From: Acidimicrobiales bacterium | Lineage (GTDB): Bacteria; Actinomycetota; Acidimicrobiia; Acidimicrobiales; VFJN01 | Direction of reading: 5' to 3' | NCBI GenBank assembly: GCA_036558145.1 | Contig: DATBGF010000393.1 | Location: forward strand, 1-36,744 | Length of the DNA stretch: 36,744 nucleotides | In this document: positions 13,618 through 32,042 of the stretch, piece after piece | How the letters are laid out: every line of letters begins with the position of its first letter | Numbering within the stretch: position 1 is the first letter of the stretch | Position numbers and translations under genes: made by a program | Notes under the pieces: generated by a model | The model's database searches: none | Told to the model about the DNA's origin: nothing | Seen by the model: only the letters and a program-made list of their open reading frames with translations

Positions 13618-14571
13618 ATGCAACGCGTGGCCGCCAGCGCCGTCGACCTCGTGATCGTGCACCGCGACCAGGGCAGCGCCCTGCGCGACACCGTCGACCG
13701 CTTCCTCGCGCAGGAGCCCGCTCCCCGCATCGTGGTGGTGGACAACGGCTCCGGGCCCGACGGGCTGGCCGCCCTGGCGGGCCTGCCCGCCGAGGTCGAG
13801 GTCCTGGAGCTGGGGTCGAACACGGGCTTCGGTCCCGGGGCCAACGCCGGGTTCCGCTGGTTCCTGGCCCACGACCCGGCGGACTGGCTGGCCGTGTGCC
13901 CCCACGACGCCCGCCCGCTGCCGGGCTGCCTGGCCCGCCTGGTGGCCGAGGCCGAGGCGCAGCCCCGGGCCGGGCTGGCGTCGGCCGACGTGGGCGACAG
14001 CCTGACCCCGGTGGTGGACCGCTACTTCGGCGCCATCCCCGCGCCGGCCACCGTGGCCCAGGGCTGGGAGGCGGCCGGCTACCCCCACGGCACGCTCATG
14101 CTGGCCGCCCGCCGCTGCCTGGAGGACGTCGGCCTGTTCGACGAGCGCTACTTCGCGTACTGCGAGGAGGCCGAGCTGGCCATCCGGGCCAAGGCCGCGG
14201 GCTGGCAGGTCGGGGTCGTGCGCGGCGCCGAGGTGCGCAACATGCACGTCGGGTCGCGGGCCGCGGTCGTCGACTACCTGCAACTGCGCAACACCCTGCT
14301 GATGGTGCGCGAGCACTCGGGCCGCTACCACGCGACGATCCGGCTCCTGATCGCCCTGTGGCACCTGGCCAGCGGGGCGGTGGTGCCGAGCCGGCGGGGG
14401 CCGTACTGGGCGCCCCGGGCCCGGGTGCTGGCCATCGCCCACCACATGGTCGGCCGCTACGGCCCGCCGCCCGCGTCGCTGTTCGGCCCCGAGCCGTCCG
14501 CCGGGTCGGAGACGTCCCAGAGCCGGCCGGTCTCGGCGTCGGCCAGCTCGGGCCGGACCCGCACCAGGTAG
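13618..14571 (+). CDS. GT2-family glycosyltransferase (rhamnosyltransferase/WbbL-like GT-A)
   Basis: Track ORF of 317 aa. Motifs: VVVDNGSGPDG, NTGFGPGAN, and the acceptor-side block YFAYCEEAELAIR. The last ~38 aa are low-complexity and overlap the convergent small ORF. Confidence 0.8.
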   Translation: MQRVAASAVDLVIVHRDQGSALRDTVDRFLAQEPAPRIVVVDNGSGPDGLAALAGLPAEVEVLELGSNTGFGPGANAGFRWFLAHDPADWLAVCPHDARPLPGCLARLVAEAEAQPRAGLASADVGDSLTPVVDRYFGAIPAPATVAQGWEAAGYPHGTLMLAARRCLEDVGLFDERYFAYCEEAELAIRAKAAGWQVGVVRGAEVRNMHVGSRAAVVDYLQLRNTLLMVREHSGRYHATIRLLIALWHLASGAVVPSRRGPYWAPRARVLAIAHHMVGRYGPPPASLFGPEPSAGSETSQSRPVSASASSGRTRTR

Positions 14572-14723
14572 ACCGCCGACACCACCAGCCCCACCGGCAC
14601 CACCATCGCCCCGAACAGGATGGCGGCCAGCCACGCCACCCGCCGCCGCCCGACCAGCGCCCACACCCACTCGGGCCGGTGGGCGGTGTCGAGCAGCGCC
14701 CACGCGGTGAGCGCCAGCGGCAC
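14457..14723 (-). CDS. Small two-TM membrane protein, PLD-nuclease N-terminal (PLDc_N)-like
   Basis: Track ORF of 88 aa. The pattern ..TAWALLDTAHRPEW.......VAWLAAILF....PVGLVVSAVYLV resembles PLDc_N. The first TM helix appears to begin upstream of the only canonical start, so the start is uncertain. Confidence 0.5.
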   Translation of the reverse strand: MPLALTAWALLDTAHRPEWVWALVGRRRVAWLAAILFGAMVVPVGLVVSAVYLVRVRPELADAETGRLWDVSDPADGSGPNSDAGGGP

Positions 14724-14785
14724 GGAGAAGATCAGGACGGCCAGGATGGTCCCGGCCTCGGACGAGACGATCGCGGGACCCTACG

Positions 14786-15442
14786 TCAGGACTCGGGGCG
14801 GGGCACCCGGCGGAGGCGGGTGCCGACGTCCTCGAAGCCGGGCAGGGGAGCCTGGAGGGCCAGGCCCAGCTCGGTGACCCGGGCGCCCACCAGGTTCTCG
14901 ACCTCGCCCCAGTCGGCCGCCCGGGGGCCGGGGACGTCGCGGTTGTAGGGCTGCTCGAACACGATCACATGCGCGCCGCTCTCCCGCAGGGCGACCACGT
15001 TGTGGGGCGCGTCCTCCACGTAGCAGTCCGCCTCCACCTGGGGCTTGGCCCCCAGGAAGCAGAGGTCCCGGTAGGGGATGCCGTTGGCGTCGAGCCACTC
15101 GACCGTGTCGGCCACCGCGGTGGCGTGGCCCCAGTTGACGTAGAGCCGGTGGGTGATGATGCGGATCCACACCCCGGCGTCCGACAGGCGCCACAGCGTC
15201 TCCGCCGCCCCCGGCATCATGGGCATGGTGCGGAAGATGCGGTGCTCCATGACCGCCGCCTGGTGCATCTCGTCGAACTGGGCGCCCGACAGGCCCCACT
15301 CCTTGAAGTCCCAGCCGGCGTCGAGGGGCAGCGACTCGGGCGAGGCCCCGGTCCGCTCGATCACGACCTGGCGCAGCGCGGCGGTGTAGTCGCCGCAGAC
15401 ACCGTCGAGGTCGACGCCGAGGATGAACCCCGAGCGACTCAC
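14786..15442 (-). CDS. HAD-superfamily phosphatase, 5'(3')-deoxyribonucleotidase (NT5C)-like
   Basis: C-terminal 218 aa of track ORF 14786..15886 (VSRSGFILGVDLDGVCGDY...), with the DxDGV nucleophile motif and a later VEDAP block. GTG 15442-15440 overlaps the stop of the upstream AftD-like gene (GTGA). An alternative GTG lies at 15472. Confidence 0.7.
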   Translation of the reverse strand: MSRSGFILGVDLDGVCGDYTAALRQVVIERTGASPESLPLDAGWDFKEWGLSGAQFDEMHQAAVMEHRIFRTMPMMPGAAETLWRLSDAGVWIRIITHRLYVNWGHATAVADTVEWLDANGIPYRDLCFLGAKPQVEADCYVEDAPHNVVALRESGAHVIVFEQPYNRDVPGPRAADWGEVENLVGARVTELGLALQAPLPGFEDVGTRLRRVPRPES

Positions 15443-18400
15443 GGATCTGTGTCCGTTCTTCGCTTCTGCCACACCCGGTCGACGACGGCGTCGGCCACCA
15501 GCACCAGCACCGCGATCCAGCCGATCGGATGGGGCCGGCGCATCTCGATGGGCCAGTCGAAGCTGGGGGTCGGGTTCCAGCGGGCCTGGATGTAGAGCAC
15601 GTACAGGGCGCACAGGCCGAGCGCGATGGGGCTGGCGAGCAGCAGGTAGCGCCGGAACGTCTCGTGGCGCGCCCCGATGCCCGCGGCGATGCCGACGCCG
15701 AGACCCACCCAGGGCCCGGCCAGGATCCAGGCGAGCAGGAACACCCCCACGCCCGTCCAGACCGCGGTGCGCCGGCTGGGCAGGGCGCCGTCGTAGCGGA
15801 AGGCCAGCACCGACGAGTACGGCTCCGCCTCCGACGTCGGGGCGTTGACGACCGTGCGGGGGCGCCGCACGATCAGGATCAGGCACGCCAGAGCGGCCGC
15901 GAGCGAGATCCAGATGGCGATGTCGACGCGGCCCTGGGGCGTGAAGCGCATGTCCACCGTGAACGAGGCGTCGTCCGGCGTGACCAGCCAGCCGTTGGCG
16001 AAGCCGTCGACGAGCACCGGGTCGCCCAGCGACCTGCCGTTCACGGTGGCCTGCCAGCCCTGGTTGAAGCTCTGCCCCATGACCAGCCAGAACGGCTGGC
16101 CCGGGGTGGCCCCGGTGACCTTGGCGGTGGCCCTGTCGTGGTTGTCGCCGGTGACCTCGACGGCGGGACCGGACGGCACCGCGCCCGCCGACGCCTCGCT
16201 GACCAGCGTGCCGCTGCCGGCCGGGGTGGCGGACCCGCCGGCGCCGGAGCGCAGCACCAGGCCGTCCACGTTGAGCCCGGTGTCCTGGCCGTCGGCGCCG
16301 GCGATCTCGTGCTCACCGTTGTCCAGCGCCAGCGGCGCGCCGTCGCAGGTGGCCAGGGGGAGCGCCTCGCCCGCCAGGGCCTGGGACATGGGCCCGGTGA
16401 CCCGCACGGGGAGCGGCTGGCCGTCGACGGTCAGCAGGTCGCTGCGGCACCCGGAGTCGTAGACCGCGGGCAGGGCCGGGACCGTGGGTGCCGGCAGGCC
16501 GATCTCGGCGATGGCCGCGGGCTGGTCCACCTCGCGGTCGCTGATCCAGTCGTGGGTGGTGACCGTGCGCACGTCGGCGATCCGGACCCGGAAGCTCGAC
16601 CCGGTCACGGGCTGGTCCAGGGGCAGGTCGACCGAGGCGGTGGCGTTCTGCGCCGCGCCGTCCTGGATCTCGGGCAGGTCCAGCGTGCCCTGGTTGACCC
16701 CGTCGACGATGAGCTCGACCTTGGTCGGGACGGAGTGGCGGCCGTCGGCGATCAGGGTCAGCGGCAGCGAGCTGATGGTCGCCGGAGAGGTCAGGTTGAC
16801 CTCGACCCACTCGTTGTTCGGGTTGCTGCGCACGGTCGTCCAGGCGGTGGACGGGTCGCCGTCGAACGCGGCCGATGCCGTCTCCAGGTCGCCGTTGAGG
16901 CTCGAGCTCGCCCGGGCCCAGGTCACCGAGCCGTCGTGGGGCCGTCCCAGCGCCTGGTCGGTCACGTAGGTCGGGTAGCGGCGGTAGAGGCGGGCCTCGC
17001 CCTCCAGGCCGAAGCTGCGGCCGGTGGGCAGGTCGACCAGGCGGAGAAGGCGCTGCTCCTCGTCCTGGCGGGTGGTGTCGGTCGGGTCCTGGCGCTGGCG
17101 GCTCAGGCTGATGGCCAGGGGGTGGTCGCCGCTGGCGCTGCCCGCTGCGTCCAGCAGGTCGGTCGGCACCCGGATGACGTCCTCGTGGGTGTCGGGCCGG
17201 TCGCCGACCTCGATCTCCGCGAAGCCGAGGCTGGACTGGCCGGCGTAGCGGGGCACGAAGCCCACGTTGTCGTCGAGGATCTCGACCGACAGGGTCTTGA
17301 ACGTGCGCTCCGGGAAGTCGACCTCTTCGCCCGGGGCGTCGCGGGACTGGTCGCTGAGCTCGGCGTCCACGGGGTCGCCGCCGTCGAAGCGCAACCGCAC
17401 CTCGGTGATGAAGCGGTTGCGGGAGCCGTTGGTGACCTGGGTGAGGTTGACGTGGTCGGTGGTGACCGGCTCGTCGTAGGTGAGCTCGATGCGCTCGCCG
17501 CGGGCGTCGGCGAACGCCCCGGTGCGCCACGCGGTCTCCAGGTCGCCGTCCACGGCCAGGGCCGGGCGCTCCTCGGAGGTGAAGGTGATCTCGTTGCCGT
17601 AGGAGGTGGCCCGGGCGCTGACGCCGCCGCGGTCCTCGGCCACCGACATGGCGCCGCTGGACTCGTCGGGGAACAGCGGCAGCCGGTTGTCGCGGGCGTC
17701 GGCCTCGAGCGGCTTGTAGCCGGCGGTCTCGGTGAAGCCCCGGGTGTGGCGGATCGTGGTCCAGCGCTCGCCCCGCTTGCGGTTCGAGTCGGTCACCAGC
17801 AGCGCGGCGCCGTCGTCCAGCGCGTCCTGCACCTGGTCCGAGGACATGGACGCCGAGTAGCGGATCAGCTCGGTGCCGTCGATCAGCCCGGTGCCGGCCG
17901 CGTCGACCAGGCCGGCGCCGTCGCCCGCCACCAGCAGCGGGTGCTGGGTGTCGTGGGTCGACACGATGGGGACCGAGCCGTCCACGGGCAGCGAGGCCAG
18001 CTCGGGCGGGTCGGGCAGGTTCGGGTCGGACTCGAACATCAGCTCGTCGTCGAGCTGCACGTTGTCGACCGTGAGGTTGGGGTTGCCCGGACCGAACGGC
18101 ACCGGTTCGCCCAGCCCGGAGGCCCGGCGCACGAAGTCCCAGAAGTTGCGGGGCCGCGGCGTGTTGTAGCGCTCGTACTGGAGGTCGCTCTGGACCAGCA
18201 CGTCGCCCGCCCGCATCAGCCGGGCGATGGGGGCGATGGAGTCCGAGTCGGCCGTGCGCTCCTGGAGGCGCAGGTCGAAGGCGTTGAGCAGGTTGGCGGA
18301 CGCGGGCGAGCCGTAGGGGATCAGCTCACGCTGCACCGAGGGCCGGTCCATCAGCCCGGGCAGCACCGGGTCGACCGTGTTGCCCCAGCGGTAGCTGGCG

Positions 18401-19890: not shown

Positions 19891-21074
19891 CGGGGGTGTC
19901 GCCGCCGTGACACCTCGTCGGCGACGACCCGCATCAGCCGCGTGGCGGTGTTGTCCCAGGTGAGCTCGCCGGCCCAGGCGAGGGCACCGGCGCTCAGGCG
20001 GGCCCGGAGGTCGCCGTCGCCGAGCACCCGGGCCATGGCGCCGCCCAGGCTCGCCGGGTCGCCCGCGGCCAGCAGCCCGGTCTCGCCGTGGTGGACCGAG
20101 TCGCGGTGCCCCGCGATGTCGGTGGCCACGGCCGGGGTGCCGCAGGCCGCGGCCTCGGTGAGCGTCATGCCCCAGCCCTCGTGGGCGGAGGCCGACGTGA
20201 TGATCCACGCCTCGCGCATCAGCTCGAGCTTGTCCGCCTCGCTGAGCGAGCCCCGCAGCGTCACCCACGTGCCCGCGTCGAGCTCCTCGATGGCGGCCTG
20301 GACCGTGGGCCGGTCGTAGCCGTCGCCGACGATGTGCAGGCGCAGGTCGGGGATGGTCTTGCGGGCATGGTGGGCGGCCCGCACCAGCAGGTCGTAGCGC
20401 TTGACCGGCGCCATGCGGCCCACCGCCATCACCAGCGGATCCGGCGACTTGGAGCCCGCGGGCGAGTAGTGGGCGTCGATGCCGGGGTGCACGACGGTGA
20501 CCCGGGCGGGATCGAAGCCGAGGTCCGAGACCAGCTCGTCCTTGGACGACTCGCACAGCGTGGCGATGGCGGACCGGCGGTAGAGCGGCGGCGCGACCTT
20601 GGCCTCGAACAGCTTGCCCACGGGCCCGAGCTTGGGCCCGAGGGTCATATTCCACATGTCGGCGTGGACGTGGTGCAACAGGATCACCCGCGGGCCGAGG
20701 TTCCACAGCGGGCTCAGGAAGGGCATGCCGTTCCAGATCTCGACCAGCACGTCGCGCGGCCCTGTGCGCCCCGCGATCTCGGCCATGGCGGCCCGGGGGA
20801 AGACCTGGTAGCGGCCGGCGCGGCGGATCACCTTGTAGCCGTCGCGCATGGCCTCGGTGGGCTGGCCCTGGGCCCAGGAGGTCCGCATCGTGATCTCGAG
20901 CCCGGCGGCGGCCCAGCGCTTGGCGACCTCGGCGATGTGGAGCTCGGACCCGCCGGCCTCGACGTCGTCGAGGTCCCGCCAGGCGAGCACGTGGACCCGC
21001 CGGACGCCGGCCGACGCGGCCAGGTCGCCGATCTTGGCGATGGGATCGGCGTCCTCAGGCACGACATTGCTCAC
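19887..21074 (-). CDS. GT4-family (GT-B, group 1) glycosyltransferase
   Basis: Track ORF of 395 aa. Its GTG start is preceded by GGGAGGA. It carries the C-terminal EX7E-type block (SASAHEGWGMTLTEAAACGTPAVATD..G..D.V). Confidence 0.85.
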   Translation of the reverse strand: MSNVVPEDADPIAKIGDLAASAGVRRVHVLAWRDLDDVEAGGSELHIAEVAKRWAAAGLEITMRTSWAQGQPTEAMRDGYKVIRRAGRYQVFPRAAMAEIAGRTGPRDVLVEIWNGMPFLSPLWNLGPRVILLHHVHADMWNMTLGPKLGPVGKLFEAKVAPPLYRRSAIATLCESSKDELVSDLGFDPARVTVVHPGIDAHYSPAGSKSPDPLVMAVGRMAPVKRYDLLVRAAHHARKTIPDLRLHIVGDGYDRPTVQAAIEELDAGTWVTLRGSLSEADKLELMREAWIITSASAHEGWGMTLTEAAACGTPAVATDIAGHRDSVHHGETGLLAAGDPASLGGAMARVLGDGDLRARLSAGALAWAGELTWDNTATRLMRVVADEVSRRRHPR

Positions 21075-21182
21075 AGGTGGTCGTCCTCCCCAGGGCCAGG
21101 TACCCGGGCGCTCGACAGTAGTGACCGCGGGTGGTTACCGCTCGGATACCGGAACCGCCGTATGCTACGGACTTCCGTGCCA

Positions 21183-21209
21183 GCGCACCAACGCTCGGGG
21201 GTGGTGCGC
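21183..21209 (+). promoter_or_regulatory. 8-bp perfect hairpin (GCGCACCA-11 nt-TGGTGCGC) in the methyltransferase leader
   Basis: Read directly. The stems are 21183-21190 and 21202-21209, ~20 nt upstream of the GGAG/GTG start at 21230. Confidence 0.3.
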
Positions 21210-21229
21210 CCGACCCGACGGAGCAGCCC

Positions 21230-21985
21230 GTGGCCAGCACCGACGACGCCCATGCGATCAGCCTGACCGAGGCCCTGGACGGCGTCGAAGGCTGGTTCAG
21301 CCCCGAGCAGGTGGACCGGGTCGTCGAGCGGGCGTCGCAGGTGCCGCCGACCGGTCGGATCGTGGAGATCGGCAGCTTCCGCGGGCGCTCCATGGTGGCC
21401 ATCGCCCGGTCCGCGCCGGAGGGCACCGAGATCGTCGCCATCGACCCCCACGCCGGCAACGACCGCGGCCCCCAGGAGATCGACGGTTTCGCCGACGAGG
21501 CCGAGGTGGACAGCAAGGTGTTCCTCGCCAACCTGGAGCGGGCCGGGGTGCGGGAGCGGGTCACGTACGTCCGCAAGTTCAGCCATGACGCCCTCGGCGA
21601 CGTCGGCGGCCCCATCGACATGCTGCACATCGACGGTGCCCACCGCTTCGCGCCGGCCAGCGACGACATCCGCAGCTGGGGCGACCGGGTCGTGCCCGGG
21701 GGCTCGATGCTGATCCACGACTCGTTCTCCTCGGCCGGGGTGACGCTGGCGCTGGCCGCCACCGTGGCCTTCTCCGGCGAGTGGCGCTACGCGGGGCGCA
21801 GCCGGTCGCTGGCGGAGTACCGCCGCGAGCCGGTGCGCGGCACCGCCCGGGCCGCCAACATCGGGCGCCAGCTGGCCCAGCTGCCGTGGTTCGCCCGCAA
21901 CCTGGCCATCAAGGCCCTGATCGTGGCCAAGCTGCCCCGCGCCGCGCGGGCGATCGGCCACGACGGCTCCACCTGGCCCTACTGA
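21230..21985 (+). CDS. Class I SAM-dependent methyltransferase (Methyltransf_24-like)
   Basis: Track ORF 21131..21985, trimmed to the GTG at 21230 (GGAG lies 6 nt upstream). Motif I-like is IVEIGSFRGRS, followed by IDPH...., LHIDGAH and PGGSMLIHD. Confidence 0.75.
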   Translation: MASTDDAHAISLTEALDGVEGWFSPEQVDRVVERASQVPPTGRIVEIGSFRGRSMVAIARSAPEGTEIVAIDPHAGNDRGPQEIDGFADEAEVDSKVFLANLERAGVRERVTYVRKFSHDALGDVGGPIDMLHIDGAHRFAPASDDIRSWGDRVVPGGSMLIHDSFSSAGVTLALAATVAFSGEWRYAGRSRSLAEYRREPVRGTARAANIGRQLAQLPWFARNLAIKALIVAKLPRAARAIGHDGSTWPY

Positions 21986-21989
21986 GGGT

Positions 21990-22885: not shown

Positions 22886-24625
22886 TCAGTCACAGCGGAC
22901 GTAGAGCTCATAGATCGGCTTGCCCGGCCCCGCGGCCGGGTTCTCGCCGTAGCGGTCGTGCAGGCAGTAGAGCTCGTCGAGGACCTTGCCGGGCTCGGAG
23001 GAGCCGGGGTCCATCGACGTGTTGGGCTCGACCCAGTTGTCGTACATCGTGGACAGGATCACGACGTCGGAGTGGCGCAGCTCGTCGGCCAGCCCCGAGT
23101 CGTCGGCGTTGGCCACGCCCGGGTCCATCTCGATGTAGCGGGTGCCGGGCACGAGCTGCGGGAGCATGAAATAGAGGTAGGCCTCGCTGTAGGGCGTGCG
23201 CCGCAGGTCGCCCGTGCCCACGATGACCTTGTCGCCGGGCTTCGTCAGGCGCTCGACGTCGTCGAGCATGGCCTCGGCCGCCACCGGCACGTCCTGGCGC
23301 CCGTAGTAGAAGCTGCGGCCCCGATGGTCCACCGACCAGACGTGGCGGTCGTAGTTCACGCCCTGGGCCACGTAGTCGGCGTACCAGCGGTACGTGAAGT
23401 GGGGGAACAGCAGCATCACCACGAAGGGCGCCAGCATGGCCACCCGGGCCACCGCCACCCGGGTGCCCCGGAGGCGGGCGGCCTCGGCCAGGAACGCCGG
23501 CAGCAGCCCGAACGGCACGCAGCTCACCCAGGACAGGTGGGCGGTGTCGGCCCGCTGGACCACCTGGGGGAGCAGCCCGGCCGCGAACAGGCTGAGCGCC
23601 AGCAGCCGCCAGCCGTGCTCGCTGCCGCGGCGCTTCGACCACACCGCGATGGCGACCATGGCCACGCAGGTGGCGACCAGGATCCAGAACCACAGCGCGA
23701 TCTGCATGGGCTGCTCGGGCGTGGGCAGCGGCCAGGGGAAGCGCCGGAACGCGAAGGCCCGGTTGAGGAAGCTCGTGTACTCGTCGGACGGAGGCGGGAA
23801 GGGCAGCCGCCGGCCCGGGCGCAGCTTGAACACCGGCTCGACGAACATGCCCTGCACCACGTTCCCCGGCCCGGCCAGGGCGATGTGGACCAGGTAGGGG
23901 CTGATGCCGAGGGCCAACCCGAGCCCGACGCGCTTGCGCCCAGCGCGGTCGAGCGCCCAGACGAACAGGACGCCGAGGGCCAGGCCCAGGCACACGACCA
24001 GGTCGGGCCGGAACAGCAGCGCGAACCCGGCCAGCAGCCCCGCCACCCACTGCGTGCGGGGCCGGATGCCCGGATCGAGGGACCGGGCGGCCACCGCCAC
24101 CGCCCACAGGGCCAGGGCCACGCCGCCGACCCAGGCCAGGGCGGTGACGCCGATGGGCGGGATGATGACGATGGCGGTGACGACCCCGCACAGCGCGGCG
24201 GTGTAGCGGCCCCAGCGGAAGCCCACGTAGGTGGTGGCGGCGATGAGGCCGGCCAGCTGCAGGATGCCGACGACCCGCTCGGTCCACAGCGACACGCCGA
24301 AGACCTTGAAGAAGCCGGCGATCGTCCAGATGCTCCCCGGCCCGTAGAGGTGGAGGAAGTCGCGGTTGGGGATGTCCCCGTGGAGCAGCCGCTCCGGGAA
24401 CACCAGCATGAAGCCCTCTTCCATGGGCGCCCCGGGGGCCCGGAAGACGCCGCGCAGCGGCAGCAGGATGGCGAGGCCCACGATGGCGGTGGGCACCAGC
24501 CAGCGCTGGCGCCGGACCCACGCCCACGGCCCGCGGCCGCGGTCGGGGGCCGGCGTGGCCTCGTCCGCCGCCTCCGGCTGATCCGGCGTGGGCTCGACGG
24601 TCTCGGTCCTGGTCGTCTCGGTCAT
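22886..24625 (-). CDS. Polytopic membrane protein with a C-terminal extracytoplasmic domain; putative unassigned GT-C-fold glycosyltransferase
   Basis: Last 579 aa of track ORF 22886..26929, starting MTETTRTETVEP (ATG 24625-24623, ATGA overlap with the upstream gene stop). It has ~11 predicted TM helices, an acidic first loop (MEEGF..FPERLLHGDIPNRDFLHLYGPGS) and a ~180-aa soluble tail. The function is not recognised. Confidence 0.6.
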   Translation of the reverse strand: MTETTRTETVEPTPDQPEAADEATPAPDRGRGPWAWVRRQRWLVPTAIVGLAILLPLRGVFRAPGAPMEEGFMLVFPERLLHGDIPNRDFLHLYGPGSIWTIAGFFKVFGVSLWTERVVGILQLAGLIAATTYVGFRWGRYTAALCGVVTAIVIIPPIGVTALAWVGGVALALWAVAVAARSLDPGIRPRTQWVAGLLAGFALLFRPDLVVCLGLALGVLFVWALDRAGRKRVGLGLALGISPYLVHIALAGPGNVVQGMFVEPVFKLRPGRRLPFPPPSDEYTSFLNRAFAFRRFPWPLPTPEQPMQIALWFWILVATCVAMVAIAVWSKRRGSEHGWRLLALSLFAAGLLPQVVQRADTAHLSWVSCVPFGLLPAFLAEAARLRGTRVAVARVAMLAPFVVMLLFPHFTYRWYADYVAQGVNYDRHVWSVDHRGRSFYYGRQDVPVAAEAMLDDVERLTKPGDKVIVGTGDLRRTPYSEAYLYFMLPQLVPGTRYIEMDPGVANADDSGLADELRHSDVVILSTMYDNWVEPNTSMDPGSSEPGKVLDELYCLHDRYGENPAAGPGKPIYELYVRCD

Positions 24626-27339
24626 GCCGCCGCTCCCGCTCCGGCGGGGGTGGGCAGCCCCACCGGGCGCCAGCCGGCGAAGAGCCGGTGGTGCCGGTCC
24701 TTGAGGGCGAGCGCCGGCCGCTCCACCAGGTAGTACGAGACCGCGGCCGCGGCGACGCTCACGACCACGGTGAAGGCCAGCGCCTTGGGGAACGAGCCGG
24801 TGAAGAGCGGCACGTCGAACACGTCGCGGTAGATGTCCGTAACCCCTTCGTGCCAGAGGTAGATGCCGTAGGAGAGGACCCCCAGCGTCACCATCGGTCG
24901 GCTTCCCAGCCAGCGCAGGGACCGGGGAAGCGTCGCGCCTGCGAGCGCCACCGGCAAAACCAGGAAGAAGCCGACGCCCGCGTACAGCGCCTCCTTGACC
25001 ACGCCCTGGGTGGGCTCGGTGGCGCCGACCTGGAAGCCGAGGCCGAGCCGCGTCGACACCGCCCAGAAGCAGGCGGCCGCGCCCAGCCAGCACACCATCG
25101 GGTGGCGCCGCGGCCAGTCCAGGATGCGCAGCGGGGCATCGCGGCGGCGCGACCACTCGACCGCGACCGCCAGGGCCATGCCCGGCACGAACAGGTGGAA
25201 GTTGGCCGGCAGCCAGTGCAGCCGGGGATCGAACGTGCCCAGCGAGACGTCGTCGCCCGACAGGCTGTGCAGCCAGTAGCGCCACGTGAGCGCGGCGGCC
25301 GCGGCTCCGGCCAGGACGCCCAGCTCGACCGCCACCGCCCGCCGCGGCGCCATCCGCCGCAGCAGGTAGGCGGCCCCCGCGGCCCACAGCGGCAGCAGCA
25401 GGTAGAAGGCCACCTCGTTGGTCAGGGTCCAGGCCTGCTGGAGCCCACCCAGCGCGGTCGAGGCCGAGTAGCTCTGCAGCAGCCCGAAGTAGCGCACGAA
25501 GTCGCCGAGGCTCTGGAAGTCGTTGCGGTCGCGGGTGTCGAGCACCACGGCCAGCACGGTGAGCGCCAGCCAGTAGGCCGGGAAGATGCGCAGGAACCGG
25601 TTGCGCAGGTAGGCGCGGACGTCCGCCGGCGGGCGGCCGTCCATGCGGCGGGCCACGAACGGCCGGTAGAGCAGGAAGCCGGACAGCACGAAGAACACGG
25701 CCACGCCCACGTCGAGGCGGGCCCAGTACTCGCCGTTGGCGTCGCGCACGGTGAACCCGGTGTGCAGGGCCACGTGGGTGGCGAGCACGCCCAGCGCGGC
25801 GATGGCCCGCAGGCCGTCGAAGCCGGCGAAGCGGCCCGCCGACGACCCCAGGCCGCCCGGGGTCTCGGCCAGCGAGCCACCGGCCGCCGGCTCGCTCACC
25901 GCGCTGGCGGGGATGGGCTCGGGTGGGAACGGGGCCTCGGGCTCCTCCCGCCGGCGCTTCCGGTACGCGACCAGGGCCGCGTCGAGCGAGACCGCGGCCG
26001 GGAACATCAGCGCCAGCTCCGCGGGCAGGCGGAAGCGGGTGGTGCCGTAGATCACCGCCACGGTGATCACCACGGTCCCCACCACCGCGATCAGCGGGAA
26101 GATCGGCCGCCCGGCCCGCCGCAGGCCCACCAGCCCGAAGGCGGCGGCCACGGCGATGGCGTACCAGACGAACATGCCCGCCTGGCCCAGTGCCGGCTCC
26201 TTGGACTCGACCTGGTCGTCCAGGAAGATCTGGCCCTGGGGCTGGTAGACGCCGAACGTGCGCCCGATCCGGGCCGCCACCACGTAGGGGACCCGCTCGG
26301 CGTGGTCCCGCATGTACTGGCGGGCGATGCGGGCGAAGCCGCGCCCCTGGGCCGAGGCGTCGCCCTCGCCCACCAGGTGCTCGGTGTCCTGGATGCACGC
26401 CAGCGACCAGTAGCCCACCCGGTCCCCGTAGTAGACGCGGTCGCAGTTGGCCGTGCCCAGCGTCTGGTCGAACTGGGCCGACAGCGTGGTGGGCTTCTCG
26501 AAGCGCGCCATGTTGTAGCCCACCCACGGCCCGATCACGATCAGCGCGACGAGCCCGGCGGCGCCCAGCTGCAGGCCGTACGAGCGGAGCGGCTTGTGCT
26601 CGGGCCGCCGGTAGCGCCACCACAAGAGCGGGATGGCGATGGCCGGGCCGAGCAGGATGGCCTCCGAGCGCACCAGCGCGGCCACGCCGATGGCCGCCCC
26701 GAAGGCGATGGCCTCGCCGGTGCCGGCCCGGTCCCACCAGCGGTAGGCGGTGAGCAGCACGATCGCGGTCGTCGAGACGACCAGGGTCTCGGACAGCACC
26801 ATGGCGTCGAACAGGAAGATGTTGGGGCTCAGCGCCGTCATGACGGCCACGATCAGCCCGACCCGCTCGCCGCCGATGCGCCGCCCGGCCAGGCCCATGG
26901 CGACCACGCCGCCGACGCCCAGGAAGCACGACACCACCTGGTGCCAGAGGAACGAGCGCATCCCCAGCAGCGAGAACCCGGCCAGCACGGTCAGGTAGCC
27001 CGGCGGGTGGTCCGCGCCCGGCATGCGGACGCCTTCCAGCAGGAAGCGGAAGGGATGGACGTAGCCCTCGCCGTCGGCCAGCAGGTTGGCGCCGTGGTGG
27101 TAGTAGTACGGGTCGCCGATCACCGGCCAGGGGTTGCGCCAGCCGAACAGGTAGACCAGCCGCACGGCCAGCCCCGCCAGGGCGATGACGGCCAGCCAGA
27201 CCCCGAAGCGCCGCGGCCGGACGGGACCGTCCTCGGCGGCCGCGTCGCCGGCCGCGACCTCGTCAGCGGGCGCGCCGGCGGTGGGCACGCCGTCGGGCTC
27301 GGTGACCGTCGGAGTGGATGCTGTCTCGGTGGATGTCAT
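24622..27339 (-). CDS. Fusion protein: N-terminal PMT_2/ArnT-like GT-C glycosyltransferase plus C-terminal acyltransferase-3 (OafA/YrhL-type) domain
   Basis: Track ORF of 905 aa with no internal stop. Residues ~45-460 (..GDPYYYHHGANLLADGEGY...HPPGYLTVLAG..) look like GT39/83-type GT-C. Residues 461-503 are a Pro/Glu/Ala linker. Residues ~504-905 start FAGFDGLRAIAALGVLATHV and continue as a ~10-TM AT3 domain ending ..GIYLWH.... Confidence 0.8.
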   Translation of the reverse strand: MTSTETASTPTVTEPDGVPTAGAPADEVAAGDAAAEDGPVRPRRFGVWLAVIALAGLAVRLVYLFGWRNPWPVIGDPYYYHHGANLLADGEGYVHPFRFLLEGVRMPGADHPPGYLTVLAGFSLLGMRSFLWHQVVSCFLGVGGVVAMGLAGRRIGGERVGLIVAVMTALSPNIFLFDAMVLSETLVVSTTAIVLLTAYRWWDRAGTGEAIAFGAAIGVAALVRSEAILLGPAIAIPLLWWRYRRPEHKPLRSYGLQLGAAGLVALIVIGPWVGYNMARFEKPTTLSAQFDQTLGTANCDRVYYGDRVGYWSLACIQDTEHLVGEGDASAQGRGFARIARQYMRDHAERVPYVVAARIGRTFGVYQPQGQIFLDDQVESKEPALGQAGMFVWYAIAVAAAFGLVGLRRAGRPIFPLIAVVGTVVITVAVIYGTTRFRLPAELALMFPAAVSLDAALVAYRKRRREEPEAPFPPEPIPASAVSEPAAGGSLAETPGGLGSSAGRFAGFDGLRAIAALGVLATHVALHTGFTVRDANGEYWARLDVGVAVFFVLSGFLLYRPFVARRMDGRPPADVRAYLRNRFLRIFPAYWLALTVLAVVLDTRDRNDFQSLGDFVRYFGLLQSYSASTALGGLQQAWTLTNEVAFYLLLPLWAAGAAYLLRRMAPRRAVAVELGVLAGAAAAALTWRYWLHSLSGDDVSLGTFDPRLHWLPANFHLFVPGMALAVAVEWSRRRDAPLRILDWPRRHPMVCWLGAAACFWAVSTRLGLGFQVGATEPTQGVVKEALYAGVGFFLVLPVALAGATLPRSLRWLGSRPMVTLGVLSYGIYLWHEGVTDIYRDVFDVPLFTGSFPKALAFTVVVSVAAAAVSYYLVERPALALKDRHHRLFAGWRPVGLPTPAGAGAAA

Positions 27340-27448
27340 CGGCGGATGGCGCCGCCCCGCCCCCCTTCAGCCGGGCGGTCGGCCATCGCACGACCCTAGT
27401 AGGAGCGACTACGCACCCGATGATTTCTGGCCGGTAGGGTGACCTGCC

Positions 27449-28831
27449 GTGCTTGAGGCACTCCGTGACTGGGGGAGGCGAGTGCTGCCGCCCGTGCCGC
27501 CGCTGGACCGGCGCGCCCGCTGGTGGCTGGCCGGGATCATCGCCGTCGGGGCGATCCTGCGGCTGGTGTGGGCGTTCCAGGCCGAGGAACCGGTGGCCCT
27601 GCGGGACCCGCTCCTGTACCTGGTGCTGGGGGACCACATCGCCTCGGGCGACGGCTACAGCTACGGCTCGGGGATCGAGCAGGGCGCCACGGCCTACTAC
27701 CCGCCCGGCTACCCGGTGCTGCTGGGGGCGGTGGTCTGGGCGGTGCGGCTGCTCCCGGGCGACGTCACGACCTTCGGCGTGGCCATCGGCCTCAACGTCG
27801 TGCTGTCGGTGGCCACCATCGGGCTGGTCTTCGTGCTGGCCCGGCGCCTCGGCGGTCCCACCGTGGGCCTGGTGGCCGCGGGGATCTGGGCGCTGTGGCC
27901 CAACCTGATCTTCCACAGCGGCATCGTGCTGACCGAGACGCTGTTCCTCTTCCTCTTCGTGCTGCTGCTGATCGTGGCCCTGGGCCACCCGGGCGCGGCC
28001 CGGGCGCCGGGCGCCCGCCGGCTGGTGGCCATCGGGGTGCTGTTCGGGCTGTGCGTGCTGGTGCGGCCGGTCACGCTGGTGGCCGCGCCCGCGTTCCTGA
28101 TCCTCTGGTGGGGCCCGGCCGTGCGCACGGTCGTGTGGCGCTCGGCGGTGGCACTGGCGGCGGTCGTGGCCGTGATGCTGCCGTGGGCGATCCGCTCCAC
28201 GGTGGTGATGGACGCACCCGTGGCCCTGTCCCTCAACCTGGGCGACAACCTGTGCCTCGGCCACAACCCGGGTGCCACCGGCGGCTTCGTCGACCTGGCC
28301 GCCTACTGCTACACCGGCGAGGGCCTGCGCCGGCCCGAGTACGAGACCCGCCGCCAGTCGGAGAACATCTCCCGCGCCCTGCACTTCATCCGGGACAACC
28401 CGGGCACGACGCTGCGCCGCACCGTGAGCAAGGGCCGCATCACCCTGGAGAGCGACGCGGACGGGCTGGACGTGGCCGAGGACTTCGGCGAGCGGCCGAT
28501 CATGTCCGACGGCACCCGCTCGGCGCTGAAGCTGGCGGCCAACACCTTCTACGCGGCGGTGGTCGTGGCCGGGCTGGCGGGCGCCGTGCTGCTCGTCCGG
28601 CGGTCGGACCCGGCCCGCCGCGGCCTGTTCCTGGTGGTCGTGGGCGTGGCCCAGCTGCTGTCCCCGCTGGCGACGTTCGGCGACCCGCGCTTCAAGATGC
28701 CGATGTACCCGACGATCGCGGTGGCCGCGGCTGTGGCGCTGGTGGCCGCAGGCGAGTGGCTGCGAGGCCGGGGGAGCTCAGCTCCGGCGCGGGAGGATCG
28801 GGGCGTCCCGGCCGGTGCCGCCACCGGCTGA
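27449..28831 (+). CDS. PMT_2/ArnT-like GT-C glycosyltransferase (GT39/83-like)
   Basis: Track ORF of 460 aa. It has the RDPLLYLVLGDHIASGDGYSY....AYYPPGYPVLLG loop and multiple TM helices. The alternative start GTG 27482 is preceded by GGGGGAGG. TAGGGT lies 8 nt upstream of GTG 27449. Confidence 0.75.
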   Translation: MLEALRDWGRRVLPPVPPLDRRARWWLAGIIAVGAILRLVWAFQAEEPVALRDPLLYLVLGDHIASGDGYSYGSGIEQGATAYYPPGYPVLLGAVVWAVRLLPGDVTTFGVAIGLNVVLSVATIGLVFVLARRLGGPTVGLVAAGIWALWPNLIFHSGIVLTETLFLFLFVLLLIVALGHPGAARAPGARRLVAIGVLFGLCVLVRPVTLVAAPAFLILWWGPAVRTVVWRSAVALAAVVAVMLPWAIRSTVVMDAPVALSLNLGDNLCLGHNPGATGGFVDLAAYCYTGEGLRRPEYETRRQSENISRALHFIRDNPGTTLRRTVSKGRITLESDADGLDVAEDFGERPIMSDGTRSALKLAANTFYAAVVVAGLAGAVLLVRRSDPARRGLFLVVVGVAQLLSPLATFGDPRFKMPMYPTIAVAAAVALVAAGEWLRGRGSSAPAREDRGVPAGAATG

Positions 28832-30334
28832 GGCCGAGCCCGGGGTGACGGACCCGGCCGCCGCCTCCTCGTGGTACTCCTCCTCGACGTTGACGGCCCA
28901 GATGTCGTGGCCGGCCCCGGTGAGGATGTTCTCCACGGTCAGCATGGCCGTGTACATCGAGTGGTCCTGGTTGTTGTACCGGTGCATGCCGTTGCGCCCG
29001 ACCGGGTGGACGTTGGGGACGTTGGCCTCCAGCCAGCGCCGCAGCACCGCCACGTTCTCGGCGTAGTCCGGGTCGTAGACGGGATACGCCTTGGGCATGC
29101 GCACCACGTAGCCGGCCTCGACGTCGGACGCCTTGACCAGGCCCAGCTGCTCCAGCTCGGCCTTGCCCTTCTCGATGAGCTCCTCGTCGGCGGCGGTCCA
29201 CCACTCGTCGCCCTCGACCACCGTGTACTCGAGGCCGAGCACGTTGCGCCCGCTGTGGATCATGTAGGGCGACCACGACCCGAAGTTCTGGACCCGCATG
29301 GTCTTGACCTCGGGGGCGTGGATGTAGATCCAGTTGTCGGTCCACGGGACCTTGTCCTCGGGGACCACCAGCGCCACCGACAGGAAGTCGCGGAAGTAGA
29401 GCTCGTCGGCCGCCGCCTGCACCTCCGGCGGCACCGGCGGGTCCATCGCCTTGGCCAGCAGCGAGTAGGGCATCGACGAGATGACCTGGTCGGCCGGGTA
29501 CTCGGTGGTGACGCCGTCGGCCTCCGAGACCACCGCCACCGCCCGGCCGCCTTCGTGGCGGACCCGGGTCACGGGGGCATCCATGATCACCTTGGTGCCG
29601 GCCGCCTCGACCAGCTCCCGGCAACGCTCCCACATCATCCCCGGGCCGTACTTGGGGTATTGGAACTGCTCGATCAGGCTCGTGACCTGCTTGGACTTGT
29701 CCTGCCTCCGCCCCGCGAGGCGGGCGCGCACCGGCTCCCAGACCGCGTCCCACAGCGACATGCCCTTGATGCGCTGGGCGCCCCACTCGGCCGAGATCTC
29801 CGAGGTCGGGACCGCCCAGACCTTCTCGCTGTAGGTCTTGAAGAAGTGGCGGTAGAGCCGCCAGCCGTAGTTGGCGACCACGTAGTCCTCGAGGGAGCGG
29901 ATCTCCTTGGGGCGGCGCACCCGGATCCACAGGAAGGACAGGCCGCAGCGCACGGCCTCGACCGGGCCGAGCGCGAGCACCGCCTTGACCGGCTTGAGCG
30001 GGTAGTCGAAGAACTTGCCCTGGTAGTAGATGTGGCTGGCGCGGGGCCGGAGCATGAACTCGTCGTCGGCGAGCACCTCGTGCCAGAAGTCCTCCACCCG
30101 CTGGACCTTGGTGAAGAACCGGTGGCCGCCGATGTCGAAGCGCCAGCCGTCCCGCTGCACCGTGCGGGAGATGCCGCCCACCACCGAGTCCGATTCGAGC
30201 ACCGTGCTGGTCACGCCGGCCTTGCCGAGCTCGTGGGCCGCGGTCAGGCCGGCCGGCCCGGCGCCGATGACGACGACGCTGCCCGGACCGTCGGCCGTCG
30301 GCGTCGGCGCGGCGGGTGAGTTGGGTTCGCTCAC
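28778..30334 (-). CDS. FAD-dependent flavoprotein, UDP-galactopyranose-mutase-like
   Basis: Track ORF of 518 aa. Its GTG start is preceded by GAGGGAGAG. It has the Rossmann motif VVIGAGPAGLTAA..L......V.ESD..VGGISRT, an FFKTYSEKVWAVP block and a C-terminal VGRNGMHRYNNQDHS block. From memory these parallel the FFKGYT.KQWG and VGRLG.YRY.DMD blocks of Glf. Confidence 0.75.
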   Translation of the reverse strand: MSEPNSPAAPTPTADGPGSVVVIGAGPAGLTAAHELGKAGVTSTVLESDSVVGGISRTVQRDGWRFDIGGHRFFTKVQRVEDFWHEVLADDEFMLRPRASHIYYQGKFFDYPLKPVKAVLALGPVEAVRCGLSFLWIRVRRPKEIRSLEDYVVANYGWRLYRHFFKTYSEKVWAVPTSEISAEWGAQRIKGMSLWDAVWEPVRARLAGRRQDKSKQVTSLIEQFQYPKYGPGMMWERCRELVEAAGTKVIMDAPVTRVRHEGGRAVAVVSEADGVTTEYPADQVISSMPYSLLAKAMDPPVPPEVQAAADELYFRDFLSVALVVPEDKVPWTDNWIYIHAPEVKTMRVQNFGSWSPYMIHSGRNVLGLEYTVVEGDEWWTAADEELIEKGKAELEQLGLVKASDVEAGYVVRMPKAYPVYDPDYAENVAVLRRWLEANVPNVHPVGRNGMHRYNNQDHSMYTAMLTVENILTGAGHDIWAVNVEEEYHEEAAAGSVTPGSASAGGGTGRDAPILPRRS

Positions 30335-30482
30335 GGGGTCGCTCTCCCTCAGCGGTGCGGACGTGAACGAGCCACCTTACCGAAGGGGCGGCCGCGGCCC
30401 GCTACTCCGTCGGGTCGGCGCCGATCCGGCCCGGCCCAGGAATCGGCCCTGCGGGGTGGCGCGTTGCTAGCATCGCCCTTTC

Positions 30483-32042
30483 ATGCGCACGCTGGTCGAC
30501 GGAGGGGTCGACGACGAGTCCACCGCCGCCGACACCGATCGGTCGACGCGGTACGGATGGGTGGTTCCGGTCATCCTCGGGGCCATCGTGGCGCTGGGCG
30601 TGGCCCTGCGCTTCATCCAGCGCTCGCCCCTCTGGCTCGACGAGGCGCTGAGCGTCAACATCGCCAAGCTGCCGCCCGGCGACCTGCTCCAGGCCCTGCG
30701 CCACGACGGCCACCCGCCGCTCTACTACCTGCTCCTGCACTACTGGATGAGGCTGTTCGGCGAGGGCGACGTGGCGGTGCGGGCCCTGTCGGGGATCATC
30801 GCGGTGGCGTCGCTGCCCCTGGCCTGGGTGGCGGGGCGGGGCCTCGCCGGGCGCTCGGGCGGCCGCTGGGCGCTGATCGTGGTGGCGCTGTCGCCCTACT
30901 GGGTGCGCTACGGCACCGAGACCCGCATGTACTCGCTGGTGATGCTGCTGGTGCTGGCCGGCTACCTGCTGGTGCAGGACGCTCTGGTCAAGCCCACGGC
31001 GCCCCGGCTGGTGGGCATCGGCCTGGTGAGCGGCCTGCTGCTGCTCAGCCACTACTGGGCCTTCTACCTGCTGGCCGCGGTGGTGATGATCCTGGCGTTC
31101 CGCTGGTGGCGCGAGGCCGACGCCCGGGGGACCACCCTGCGGGTGGGTGCGGCCGTCGTGGCCGGCTCGATCCTGTTCGTGCCCTGGCTCGGCGGCTTCC
31201 TGTACCAGGCGGGCCACACGGGCACGCCCTGGGGCGAGCCGTTCCGGCCCACCGCCATCGTGCAGACGACCCTGCAGGACCTGGGCGGCGGCGAGCTCAC
31301 CGAGGCCGCGCTCTACGGCTCGATCGTGCTGGTCCTGGTGCTGGTGGCGCTGTTCGCCGTGCGCTCCGCGAACCACGAGATGGTGCTCGACCTGCGCACC
31401 TCGCCGATCGTGCGGGTCGAGCTGGCGCTCGTGACGCTGGTCATCGGCCTCGGCGCGGTGGCGAGCTACCTGACCCACGCCACCTACCAGAGCCGCTACG
31501 CGGCGGTGATCGTGCCGTTCGTGCTGCTGGCCGTGGCGGTGGGCATCACCCGGGTGCCGGGACTGGGCCGCCTGCTGGTCGGCATCGTGTACATCGGCTT
31601 CTCGCTGGCCGGCATCCTCTGGGTCAACTACTACCAGCGGACCCAGTCCGAGATCGTGGCCGGCGCGGTGGCGGCCCGGGCCCAGCCGGGCGACGTGGTC
31701 GTGTACTGCCCGGACCAGCTCGGCCCGGCCTACTCGCGGGAGATGCCCGACGGCCTCGTGGAGCTGAGCTACCCGGCGCTCACCTCGCCCGAGCGGGTCG
31801 ACTGGGTCGACTACGCGGAGCGGAACGCGGCCGCCGACCCGCACGAAATCGCCGCCGAGATCAACGAGCGGGCCGGCAACCATGCGGTGTTCGTGGTGTG
31901 GATGTCCGACTACCGCACCTTCGGCTCGCAGTGCGAGCAGCTCCTGAGCGAGCTGGGCATGGTCGAGCCCCTGGTGATCCAGGACAGCACGCGGTTCTTC
32001 GAGCCGGCCTTCGTGCACTGGCGGCCCGCTCAACCGGAATAA
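30483..32042 (+). CDS. PMT_2/ArnT-like GT-C glycosyltransferase with a C-terminal soluble domain
   Basis: Track ORF of 519 aa. The first-loop acidic motif is SPLWLDEALS, followed by DGHPPLYYLLLHYW, ~10 TM helices and a ~150-aa tail. Confidence 0.75.
   Translation: MRTLVDGGVDDESTAADTDRSTRYGWVVPVILGAIVALGVALRFIQRSPLWLDEALSVNIAKLPPGDLLQALRHDGHPPLYYLLLHYWMRLFGEGDVAVRALSGIIAVASLPLAWVAGRGLAGRSGGRWALIVVALSPYWVRYGTETRMYSLVMLLVLAGYLLVQDALVKPTAPRLVGIGLVSGLLLLSHYWAFYLLAAVVMILAFRWWREADARGTTLRVGAAVVAGSILFVPWLGGFLYQAGHTGTPWGEPFRPTAIVQTTLQDLGGGELTEAALYGSIVLVLVLVALFAVRSANHEMVLDLRTSPIVRVELALVTLVIGLGAVASYLTHATYQSRYAAVIVPFVLLAVAVGITRVPGLGRLLVGIVYIGFSLAGILWVNYYQRTQSEIVAGAVAARAQPGDVVVYCPDQLGPAYSREMPDGLVELSYPALTSPERVDWVDYAERNAAADPHEIAAEINERAGNHAVFVVWMSDYRTFGSQCEQLLSELGMVEPLVIQDSTRFFEPAFVHWRPAQPE

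Follow-up and report, generated by a model that had tools for sequence, protein, structure and literature searches.

A conserved Acidimicrobiia gene block rich in GT-C membrane enzymes, probably serving to assemble an envelope glycan outside the membrane

The question raised by this stretch of DNA, a complete 36,744-bp contig (DATBGF010000393.1) from the metagenome-assembled genome of an uncultured Acidimicrobiales bacterium, called the window throughout, is what a block of 18,425 bases at positions 13618-32042 serves for, given that five of its genes encode polytopic membrane proteins of GT-C type. GT-C enzymes use polyprenyl-phosphate-linked sugars on the outside of the membrane, and Ppm1 supplies polyprenyl-phosphate mannose. 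The block is likely to be this genome's version of a locus conserved throughout Acidimicrobiia, in which polyprenyl-phosphate sugars would be used, largely outside the cytoplasmic membrane, to build an envelope glycan (either a lipoglycan or a polysaccharide linked to the wall). Genes for five GT-C enzymes, three cytoplasmic Leloir-type transferases, a flavoprotein resembling UDP-galactopyranose mutase (UGM), an AT3 acyltransferase domain, a methyltransferase and a HAD phosphatase are clustered here, they are inherited together and some of them are fused to each other in relatives. The positions of the genes are given in Table 1.

Conservation was assessed by tblastn of all window proteins against 80 related loci, 38 of which have full flanks (nine close relatives with full 10-kb flanks and 29 more distant loci). 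In each of the nine close relatives the entire block is present, with gene order and orientation unchanged. Among the 29 distant loci, homologues with at least 40% identity were found for the Ppm1-like synthase in 24, the GT4 enzyme in 20, the AftD-like enzyme in 17, the UGM-like flavoprotein in 16, the 519-aa PMT_2-type enzyme in 12 and the NT5C-type HAD phosphatase in 11. The block is not a chance association, as it recurs in every close relative and its core in most distant Acidimicrobiia. The 579-aa and Ppm1-like genes lie at most 500 bp apart in 61 of 66 loci, the GT4 gene is adjacent to AftD in 29 of the 38 full-flank loci, and the NT5C gene stands directly downstream of the AftD orthologue in 20 of them (61-86% identity). 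The 519-aa, UGM-like and Ppm1-like genes are co-directional in several distant lineages with gaps of about 45-135 bp. The parts that vary between lineages are the methyltransferase (Methyltransf_24 gene in 19 of the 38 loci), the 317-aa GT2 (11 of 38), the 460-aa GT-C enzyme and the PMT_2 half of the PMT_2-AT3 fusion. In the window itself, stops and starts overlap by 4 bp at three places (GT4 stop with AftD-like start, AftD-like stop with NT5C start, PMT_2-AT3 stop with 579-aa start), and some of the block genes are thus translationally coupled.

An earlier annotation made from the letters and open reading frames without database searches, here called the sequence-only reading, had proposed an undescribed, self-contained assembly line and had tied its case to a GT-C fold in most of the five polytopic proteins. 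That part of the proposal stands because all five are assigned to GT-C: the AftD-like protein by its profile and its alignment to structure 6W98, the PMT_2-AT3 fusion and the 519-aa protein by the Pfam PMT_2 profile, and the 579-aa and 460-aa proteins by AlphaFold models searched with Foldseek. Families were otherwise assigned by Pfam and NCBIfam profile scans of the window proteins and by PDB sequence searches. The PDB sequence searches gave no matches for the fusion or the 519-aa protein, so their GT-C status is based on Pfam, and the 579-aa and 460-aa proteins were examined by structure because they lack firm profile support. In NCBIfam, the flavoprotein is the only product of the block with an equivalog above cut-off.

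Neither Pfam nor NCBIfam gives a match for the 579-aa protein at E <= 0.01. In a Foldseek search with its AlphaFold model (pLDDT 83.7, pTM 0.87) the top 17 PDB matches were all GT-C enzymes with probability 1.00 and TM of about 0.5, including ArnT (7e-7), STT3, AftA, DPY19, AftD, ALG3, AftB, PglB and EmbB. The modelled fold is that of a GT-C enzyme, with invariant E69/E70 after the first transmembrane (TM) segment in the first outer loop and a C-terminal alpha/beta domain. A diverged PMT_2 protein was also considered and was ruled out at the sequence level, since hhalign against the family of the 460-aa protein gave a probability of 3%. When 1.84 billion cluster representatives were searched with a profile of the family, 3081 members were found, and homologues occur almost only in Acidimicrobiia genomes and in metagenomes. 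In some of these the domain is part of proteins of 900-1540 aa in the arrangements PMT_2+AT3+p579, AT3+PMT_2+p579, PMT_2+p579 and AT3+p579, where p579 denotes the 579-aa family (examples with PMT_2 and/or AT3 are P0320, P0322, P0329, P0335, P0336 and P0348). Such Rosetta-stone fusions in several orders suggest that the three modules work together.

In the 905-aa fusion of the window the predicted GT-C domain covers residues ~1-470 and AT3 (Acyl_transf_3) residues ~505-867, with 16 hydropathy peaks in total. NCBIfam gives a weak similarity to SucT, far under cut-off, and AT3 is a free-standing gene in locus L082. The 460-aa protein has orthologues with 77-79% identity that match PF13231, PF02516 or both, and NCBI lists them under the name GT39 family. 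Its AlphaFold model (pLDDT 88.2) has a predicted GT-C fold, the top 37 PDB matches in Foldseek being all GT-C, and an invariant D53 is found in the first outer loop. The 519-aa protein has an LWLDEA motif after TM1 and is annotated by PGAP as 'glycosyltransferase family 39 protein' (HEY7071182.1). All three PMT_2-type proteins match PF13231 only, and no match to PMT (PF02366) or PMT_4TMC was found for any of them.

AftD-family enzymes add arabinofuranose in arabinogalactan and lipoarabinomannan (LAM) of Corynebacteriales. Profile PF11847 matches the AftD-like protein of the block with 337 bits (cut-off 26) over profile positions 6-650 of 661, and residues 53-1349 align with residues 18-1290 of the Mycobacterium abscessus AftD chain 6W98 (2e-52). 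There are 14 hydropathy peaks, ten N-terminal and four C-terminal. The architecture predicted from the sequence, an N-terminal polytopic GT-C domain followed by periplasmic carbohydrate-binding modules (CBMs) and a C-terminal four-TM bundle, is the layout of a full-length AftD. Membership of the AftD family is clear from these comparisons, but the transferred sugar is not fixed by homology. Five residues, K39, D41, E251, K361 and D474, are essential in AftD of M. abscessus/M. smegmatis according to Tan et al. (bioRxiv 10.1101/2019.12.22.885152), who already list an Acidimicrobiales AftD homologue. Equivalents of K39, E251 and D474 are retained in the window protein, K361 is replaced by arginine and D41 by tyrosine. 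The D41 region reads PDTKLDLAINP in M. abscessus and ADTKxYLYLDP in more than 40 Acidimicrobiia loci, where an aspartate follows four residues later. The whole-cell sugars of Actinospongicola halichondriae, a cultured carrier of the core locus, are rhamnose, ribose, mannose and galactose, with no arabinose (PMC12263773), and this agrees with the use of mannose and galactose. Because D41 is replaced clade-wide and no arabinose is found in this cultured carrier, AftD homology does not establish arabinose as the transferred sugar. Actinospongicola has two tandem AftD-like genes (L085 1-4810; also L058 15167-21600), the second of which is nearer to the window gene (50% versus 39% identity).

On the donor side, the sequence-only reading had named a Ppm1-like synthase and a UGM-like flavoenzyme, and both calls hold, the flavoenzyme having its active-site residues retained. 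The Ppm1-like protein is a soluble GT2 enzyme without a TM segment by hydropathy and has a DAD motif within QMDADLSHPP. Its best PDB match is the dolichol-phosphate mannose synthase of Pyrococcus furiosus (5MLZ, 4e-38, residues 1-237), compared with 5e-13 for ArnC. It is named 'polyprenol monophosphomannose synthase' by PGAP (HEY7071177.1), and the best NCBIfam equivalog, dolichyl-phosphate hexose transferase, scores 85 bits against a cut-off of 375. Judging by its homologues, the hexose is probably mannose. A polyprenyl-phosphate galactofuranose donor, made by the mutase and the Ppm1-like enzyme for use by a GT-C enzyme, was considered on account of an operon of mutase and Ppm1-like genes in distant lineages. 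This route was set aside except as a minor possibility, since the mannose-specific DPM synthases are the nearest relatives of the Ppm1-like enzyme.

The flavoprotein falls into NCBIfam family PRK07208.1-4, which is named only 'hypothetical protein', and its best PDB matches are UGM of the eukaryotic type from Aspergillus fumigatus (1e-23) and Trypanosoma cruzi (1e-18). These enzymes resemble it in length (about 510 aa), in the FAD fold and in the conserved GGH and Arg/Tyr/Asn residues, but the bacterial PRK07208 family is without a characterised member. In a phmmer alignment to 3UKA the GGH loop and the counterparts of R182, R327, R447, Y453 and N457 are retained, which we take to be the flavin loop and the residues that hold the sugar diphosphate. 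Q107 and N163, presumably contacts to uracil and ribose in the A. fumigatus enzyme, are replaced by K and S, so the nucleotide or the sugar may differ. With the bacterial UGM model TIGR00031 it scores only 30.4 bits, well short of the cut-off (303.75), and no GLF domain match was found at E <= 0.01. The flavoprotein is a candidate nucleotide-sugar pyranose/furanose mutase by its homology.

The GT4 enzyme has its best PDB matches in MshA (1e-15) and PimB' (1e-8). Single gene calls that join GT4 and GT-C_AftD domains are found in L084 (1904-6151, 1415 aa) and L081 (14508-17507, 999 aa); given the 4-bp overlap of the two genes in the window, these may be real fusions or long-read indel artefacts. 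The 317-aa GT2 is weakly similar to WbbL and GlfT1 (about 1e-5 with the NCBIfam models for rhamnosyltransferase and GlfT1, far under the cut-offs), its orthologues are labelled decaprenyl-PP-GlcNAc rhamnosyltransferase in IMG, and a PDB sequence search with it gave no match. The NT5C-type HAD phosphatase, an exact match to HEY7071173.1, has motif I (DLDGV) at residues 11-15 and an intact DxD motif. The methyltransferase, which has an alternative start at 21131 giving 284 aa, has a weak PDB match to 6G7D (4e-6). At the same site between GT4 and the Ppm1-like gene, relatives have an unrelated methyltransferase (Methyltransf_11/23/25) on the opposite strand, and this is fused to a GT2 domain in Actinospongicola. 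A methyltransferase therefore recurs at this position, but as different enzymes.

From these families a sequence of events can be proposed. The GT4 enzyme and/or the 317-aa GT2 would make a cytoplasmic glycolipid or polyprenyl-linked primer, while the Ppm1-like enzyme would load a hexose, most likely mannose from GDP-mannose, onto polyprenyl phosphate. This donor would be flipped by a protein encoded outside the block, after which the 579-aa protein and the PMT_2-type GT-C enzymes could elongate and branch the glycan on the outer face. The AT3 domain, fused or coupled to two GT-C modules, may O-acylate the same glycan during synthesis. The AftD-like enzyme would hold the polymer by its lectin-like modules and add further residues to it, of which a pentofuranose carried on polyprenyl phosphate is the most plausible. 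To produce this donor, the co-translated HAD phosphatase may strip the 5-phosphate from polyprenyl-phospho-ribose-5-phosphate. The UGM-like enzyme would provide a furanose nucleotide sugar and the methyltransferase, in some lineages, O-methyl groups. Read from family names only, the polymer would thus contain furanose, mannose, methyl and acyl groups.

Several points weigh against a single assembly locus of this kind. Every substrate assignment is by homology, and the tyrosine motif at the D41 site of the AftD-like enzyme is conserved in more than 40 Acidimicrobiia loci. Pfam/NCBIfam scans of the window found no initiating phosphoglycosyltransferase, flippase, LCP-type ligase or polyprenyl-phosphoribose synthase. 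No nucleotide-sugar genes besides the mutase were found in the window, nor any UbiA-family, MATE or SMR/GtrA protein in Pfam scans of it. Of the 80 loci, only 6 have a phosphoribosyltransferase next to them. Other lineages can do without the methyltransferase, the 460-aa GT-C enzyme and the PMT_2 half of the fusion. The synteny partly runs on into unrelated neighbours such as an M18 peptidase and DnaJ, so some of the conserved gene order reflects shared ancestry and not selection. The block is not one operon: its genes lie on both strands, and divergent and convergent junctions divide it into at least seven transcription units, which together with the three lineage-dispensable parts leaves room for more than one product. 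The description of the block as self-contained has therefore to be given up, because functions for initiation, flipping and attachment are absent from the window and the homologous locus is larger in relatives. The notion of an assembly line for one polymer was likewise too strong in view of the transcription units and of the parts that vary between lineages.

The main rival to a single assembly locus is that two or more independent glycosylation modules lie side by side, each acting on a different envelope molecule. There would be one module for mannan or lipomannan (PMT_2-AT3 fusion, 579-aa protein and Ppm1-like synthase), one for pentofuranose (GT4, AftD-like enzyme and NT5C phosphatase) and one three-component side-chain module (UGM-like flavoprotein and PMT_2-type enzyme). 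The number of transcription units on both strands is in its favour, as is the fact that the modules are rearranged relative to one another between lineages while remaining internally intact. The variable presence of the methyltransferase, the 460-aa enzyme and the 317-aa GT2 and the synteny of neighbouring housekeeping genes fit it as well. However, the modules are still adjacent after rearrangement, the fusions join different module types (GT-C with AT3), and mycobacterial enzymes of these kinds are known to cooperate on shared polymers. Independent modules are regarded as unlikely, though deserving of more weight than the two explanations by known systems that follow. One of these is protein O-mannosylation of the actinobacterial Ppm1 and Pmt (GT39) type, in which PMT_2 proteins would move mannose from polyprenyl-phosphate mannose to secreted proteins. 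As in that system, a Ppm1-type synthase adjoins GT-C enzymes that NCBI names 'glycosyltransferase family 39' and that have an acidic motif in the first outer loop, and Pmt1, Pmt2 and Pmt4 are among the Foldseek matches. On the other hand, the true Pmt models (PF02366, PMT_4TMC) are unmatched, the broad PMT_2 profile also covers ArnT-like lipid and glycan transferases, and the best structural matches are AglB/STT3 and ArnT rather than Pmt. The CBM-bearing AftD-like enzyme, AT3, the mutase and GT4 are foreign to that system and suggest a polysaccharide as substrate. Protein O-mannosylation is very improbable on these grounds and was rejected.

Still less probable, to the point of being nearly dismissed, is that the block is a plain orthologue of the characterised lipomannan (LM)/LAM or arabinogalactan pathway of Corynebacteriales. 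The similarities are a Ppm1-type synthase, several outer-face GT-C enzymes, full-length AftD homology, a GT4 enzyme as candidate for priming, an AT3 domain for glycan acylation with weak similarity to SucT, and an equivalog of decaprenyl-phosphate phosphoribosyltransferase (DPPR synthase) adjoining the locus in relatives. The organism, however, belongs to Acidimicrobiales in a different class of Actinomycetota and the gene order is unrelated. Pfam scans of every gene in the window found no emb (GT53), aftA/B/C, glfT2, ubiA, dprE1/E2, Mpt/PimE (GT87) or mycolate genes, in agreement with the sequence-only reading, which had noted the absence of ubiA, dprE, emb, glfT and mycolate genes. Four of the five GT-C enzymes are of other families, being PMT_2-type or from a family without a model, the D41 site has tyrosine, and AT3 is fused or coupled to GT-C and not to an SGNH domain. 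Further differences are the NT5C-type HAD coupled to AftD, the GMC and SDR enzymes that relatives have where DprE1/E2 would be expected, and the lack of arabinose in the cultured relative (PMC12263773). A canonical arabinogalactan/LAM locus was therefore rejected, and the claim that the block is neither this nor a Pmt locus holds. The block also appears to be undescribed, as had been proposed: no description of it was found in literature on AftD with Acidimicrobiia, Acidimicrobiia envelope glycans, PRK07208 and lipid-linked galactofuranose.

The preferred reading, a locus for assembly of an envelope glycan, has features in common with three-component glycosylation systems (GtrA/GtrB/Gtr*, ArnC/ArnT, PpgS/Rv3779), in that a synthase and a GT-C enzyme stand side by side (Ppm1-like and 579-aa genes here; UGM-like, Ppm1-like and PMT_2 genes in relatives). 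In contrast to these systems there are five GT-C enzymes instead of one, and the role is more likely to be polymer building than side-chain decoration. Kelly et al. 2024 (PMC11127046) showed how alpha-pentofuranoses are added on the outer side of the membrane: the proteins involved are a polyprenyl phosphoribose synthase, a phosphoribose phosphatase of the HAD family, a flippase and a GT-C enzyme of family GT136 that bears a CBM, and an SDR epimerase can turn the ribose donor into xylose. In analogy with that system, the NT5C-type HAD, co-translated with the AftD-like gene across the class, is a candidate 5-phosphatase for lipid-linked phosphoribose. In both cases a HAD phosphatase adjoins a CBM-bearing GT-C enzyme, and SDR epimerases and a UbiA-type phosphoribosyltransferase occur in related loci. 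They differ in that the window has no flippase or phosphoribosyltransferase and its NT5C-type HAD stands alone instead of forming a domain of the synthase.

The larger form of the locus in relatives is of interest in this respect. Actinospongicola halichondriae (L058/L085) and L084 have an operon divergent from the pair of 579-aa and Ppm1-like genes, with in order a UbiA-family protein, a 100-aa protein, a GMC flavin oxidoreductase, two proteins of the SDR epimerase/dehydratase family and two polytopic proteins of about 620 aa. The UbiA-family protein matches NCBIfam NF008978 (decaprenyl-phosphate phosphoribosyltransferase) with 327 bits against a cut-off of 207 and has the same name in PGAP. 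This enzyme is present in the related loci L042, L056, L058, L059, L070, L080 and L084, and about 22 of the 80 loci have homologues of the GMC and SDR enzymes alongside. The window has no phosphoribosyltransferase, GMC or SDR gene of this kind, nor do the 10-kb surroundings in its close clade, and with the Actinospongicola DPPR synthase as query no match was found on contigs of the close relatives among the matches listed (at least 60% identity). The divergent operon could be a donor pathway resembling that for decaprenyl-phosphate arabinose but using enzymes other than DprE1/DprE2. A wider proposal, possible though doubtful, is that Acidimicrobiia make a mannan-based lipoglycan with pentofuranose (ribo-, arabino- or xylofuranose) by a pathway analogous but largely non-orthologous to the mycobacterial arabinan pathway. 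DPPR synthase would then provide polyprenyl-phospho-ribose-5-phosphate, the AftD-coupled NT5C HAD would take the place of Rv3807c, and the GMC flavin oxidase and SDR reductases that of DprE1/DprE2. The AftD-like enzyme with its shifted acidic residue and the 579-aa family, fused or coupled to AT3, would build and acylate the polymer, and the groups NT5C-AftD-GT4 and p579-Ppm1 of the window would be the conserved core.

Table 1. Genes of the block in the window, and related features in other loci
Feature	Position	Strand	Support
GT2 glycosyltransferase, 317 aa, cytoplasmic GT-A type	13618-14571	+	PF00535 1e-9
Small membrane protein, 88 aa from first start codon	14457-14723	-	PF10724 (DUF2516) 9e-5, below cut-off; third-position GC 0.99
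NT5C-type HAD phosphatase, 218 aa	14786-15442	-	PF06941 3e-34
AftD-like GT-C glycosyltransferase, 1483 aa	15439-19890	-	PF11847 (GT-C_AftD) 2e-100; F5_F8_type_C; CBM_AftD
GT4 (GT-B) glycosyltransferase, 395 aa	19887-21074	-	PF00534 2e-31, PF13439
Class I SAM-dependent methyltransferase, 251 aa	21230-21985	+	PF13578 Methyltransf_24 4e-20
Ppm1/DPM1-type polyprenyl-phosphate hexose synthase, 274 aa	21990-22814	-	PF00535 7e-31
GT-C-fold glycosyltransferase, 579 aa (p579)	22886-24625	-	no Pfam/NCBIfam match; AlphaFold and Foldseek
PMT_2-type GT-C and AT3 membrane acyltransferase fusion, 905 aa	24622-27339	-	PF13231 43.4 bits (cut-off 26.1), PF01757 7e-29
GT-C glycosyltransferase, 460 aa (PMT_2/STT3-like; PMT2a)	27449-28831	+	PF13231 22.8 bits, below cut-off 26.1
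FAD flavoprotein (UGM-like), 518 aa	28778-30334	-	NCBIfam PRK07208.1-4 720 bits (cut-off 389), 1e-216
PMT_2-type GT-C glycosyltransferase, 519 aa (PMT2b)	30483-32042	+	PF13231 44.8 bits (cut-off 26.1), 2e-11
Replacement methyltransferase in relatives	L058 12331-13950; L085 6063-7604; L084 6680-7621		
Divergent operon in relatives	L058 5248-9934; L085 10001-18321; L084 10001-18558		overlapping stops and starts

The G+C content across the window is 72-81%, so lists of open reading frames (ORFs) contain mostly spurious frames. Genes were therefore called with a frame plot of third-position GC (GC3), which resolved one coding frame at every position. In the block this reproduced exactly the twelve genes that had been listed from the sequence, on the same strands, and added a thirteenth, overlooked ORF, the small DUF2516-like gene, which is found at an equivalent place in the distant loci L081 and L083. 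Six of the chosen start codons are backed by exact matches to deposited proteins (in the range HEY7071173-HEY7071182). The earlier impression of almost no spacer is borne out by about 550 non-coding bases among 18,425 (~3%) and by the three 4-bp overlaps. Larger overlaps of convergent 3' ends are found between GT2 and the DUF2516-like ORF (115 bp, 14457-14571) and between the 460-aa GT-C gene and the UGM-like gene (54 bp, 28778-28831). The low-complexity C-terminal tail of GT2 may be mere read-through over the antisense of the small DUF2516-like gene.

The limits of the block also agree with those given before, since the flanks on both sides encode unrelated functions. On the upstream side lie genes for the cobalamin nucleotide loop and LMW-PTP, fructosamine kinase, CHAD, ParA-like, MsrB, DnaJ-like, ankyrin, MarR, amidohydrolase and M18 aminopeptidase genes, and downstream ABATE/CGNR, MOSC and NIT-histidine kinase genes. 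The cobalamin nucleotide-loop run (CobT-type phosphoribosyltransferase, aminotransferase, CobD/CbiB, CobS and CobU) occupies 2-4121 on the minus strand with about 80% G+C. Rfam and tRNA scans of the window gave no matches, and thus no cobalamin riboswitch was found by Rfam in the window. At 10329-12242 the MarR-family gene ends at 10787 and the amidohydrolase-family gene starts 10 bases further on in the same frame. Directly after the MOSC gene, at 33271-33768, two short ORFs in the same frame are split by a stop codon; their GC3 is coding-like and they have no Pfam match. A single decayed gene and a pair of small genes are both conceivable.

Acidimicrobiia, which occur abundantly in soils, in sponges and in both fresh and sea water, have barely been cultured, and we know of nothing reported on their envelope glycans. 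Assembly by GT-C enzymes and polyprenyl-phosphate sugars is a known type; what is new here is the GT-C family without a model, the unusual coupling of GT-C and AT3 and the uncharacterised arrangement. With about 3000 sequence clusters, the 579-aa family is a GT-C family of considerable size that present domain libraries have overlooked, and the GT-C/AT3 fusions argue for a physical coupling of glycosyl transfer and O-acylation. The locus suggests candidates for non-orthologous replacements of Rv3807c and of DprE1/DprE2, of which DprE1 is a mycobacterial drug target. It is a concrete genetic handle on an envelope polymer of Acidimicrobiia. The logic of GT-C enzymes and polyprenyl-phosphate sugars familiar from the tuberculosis cell wall is present and conserved, with a different gene set, in a deep-branching class of actinobacteria. 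The locus is also relevant to the time at which AftD-type enzymes appeared in Actinomycetota and to the role they had before arabinogalactan.

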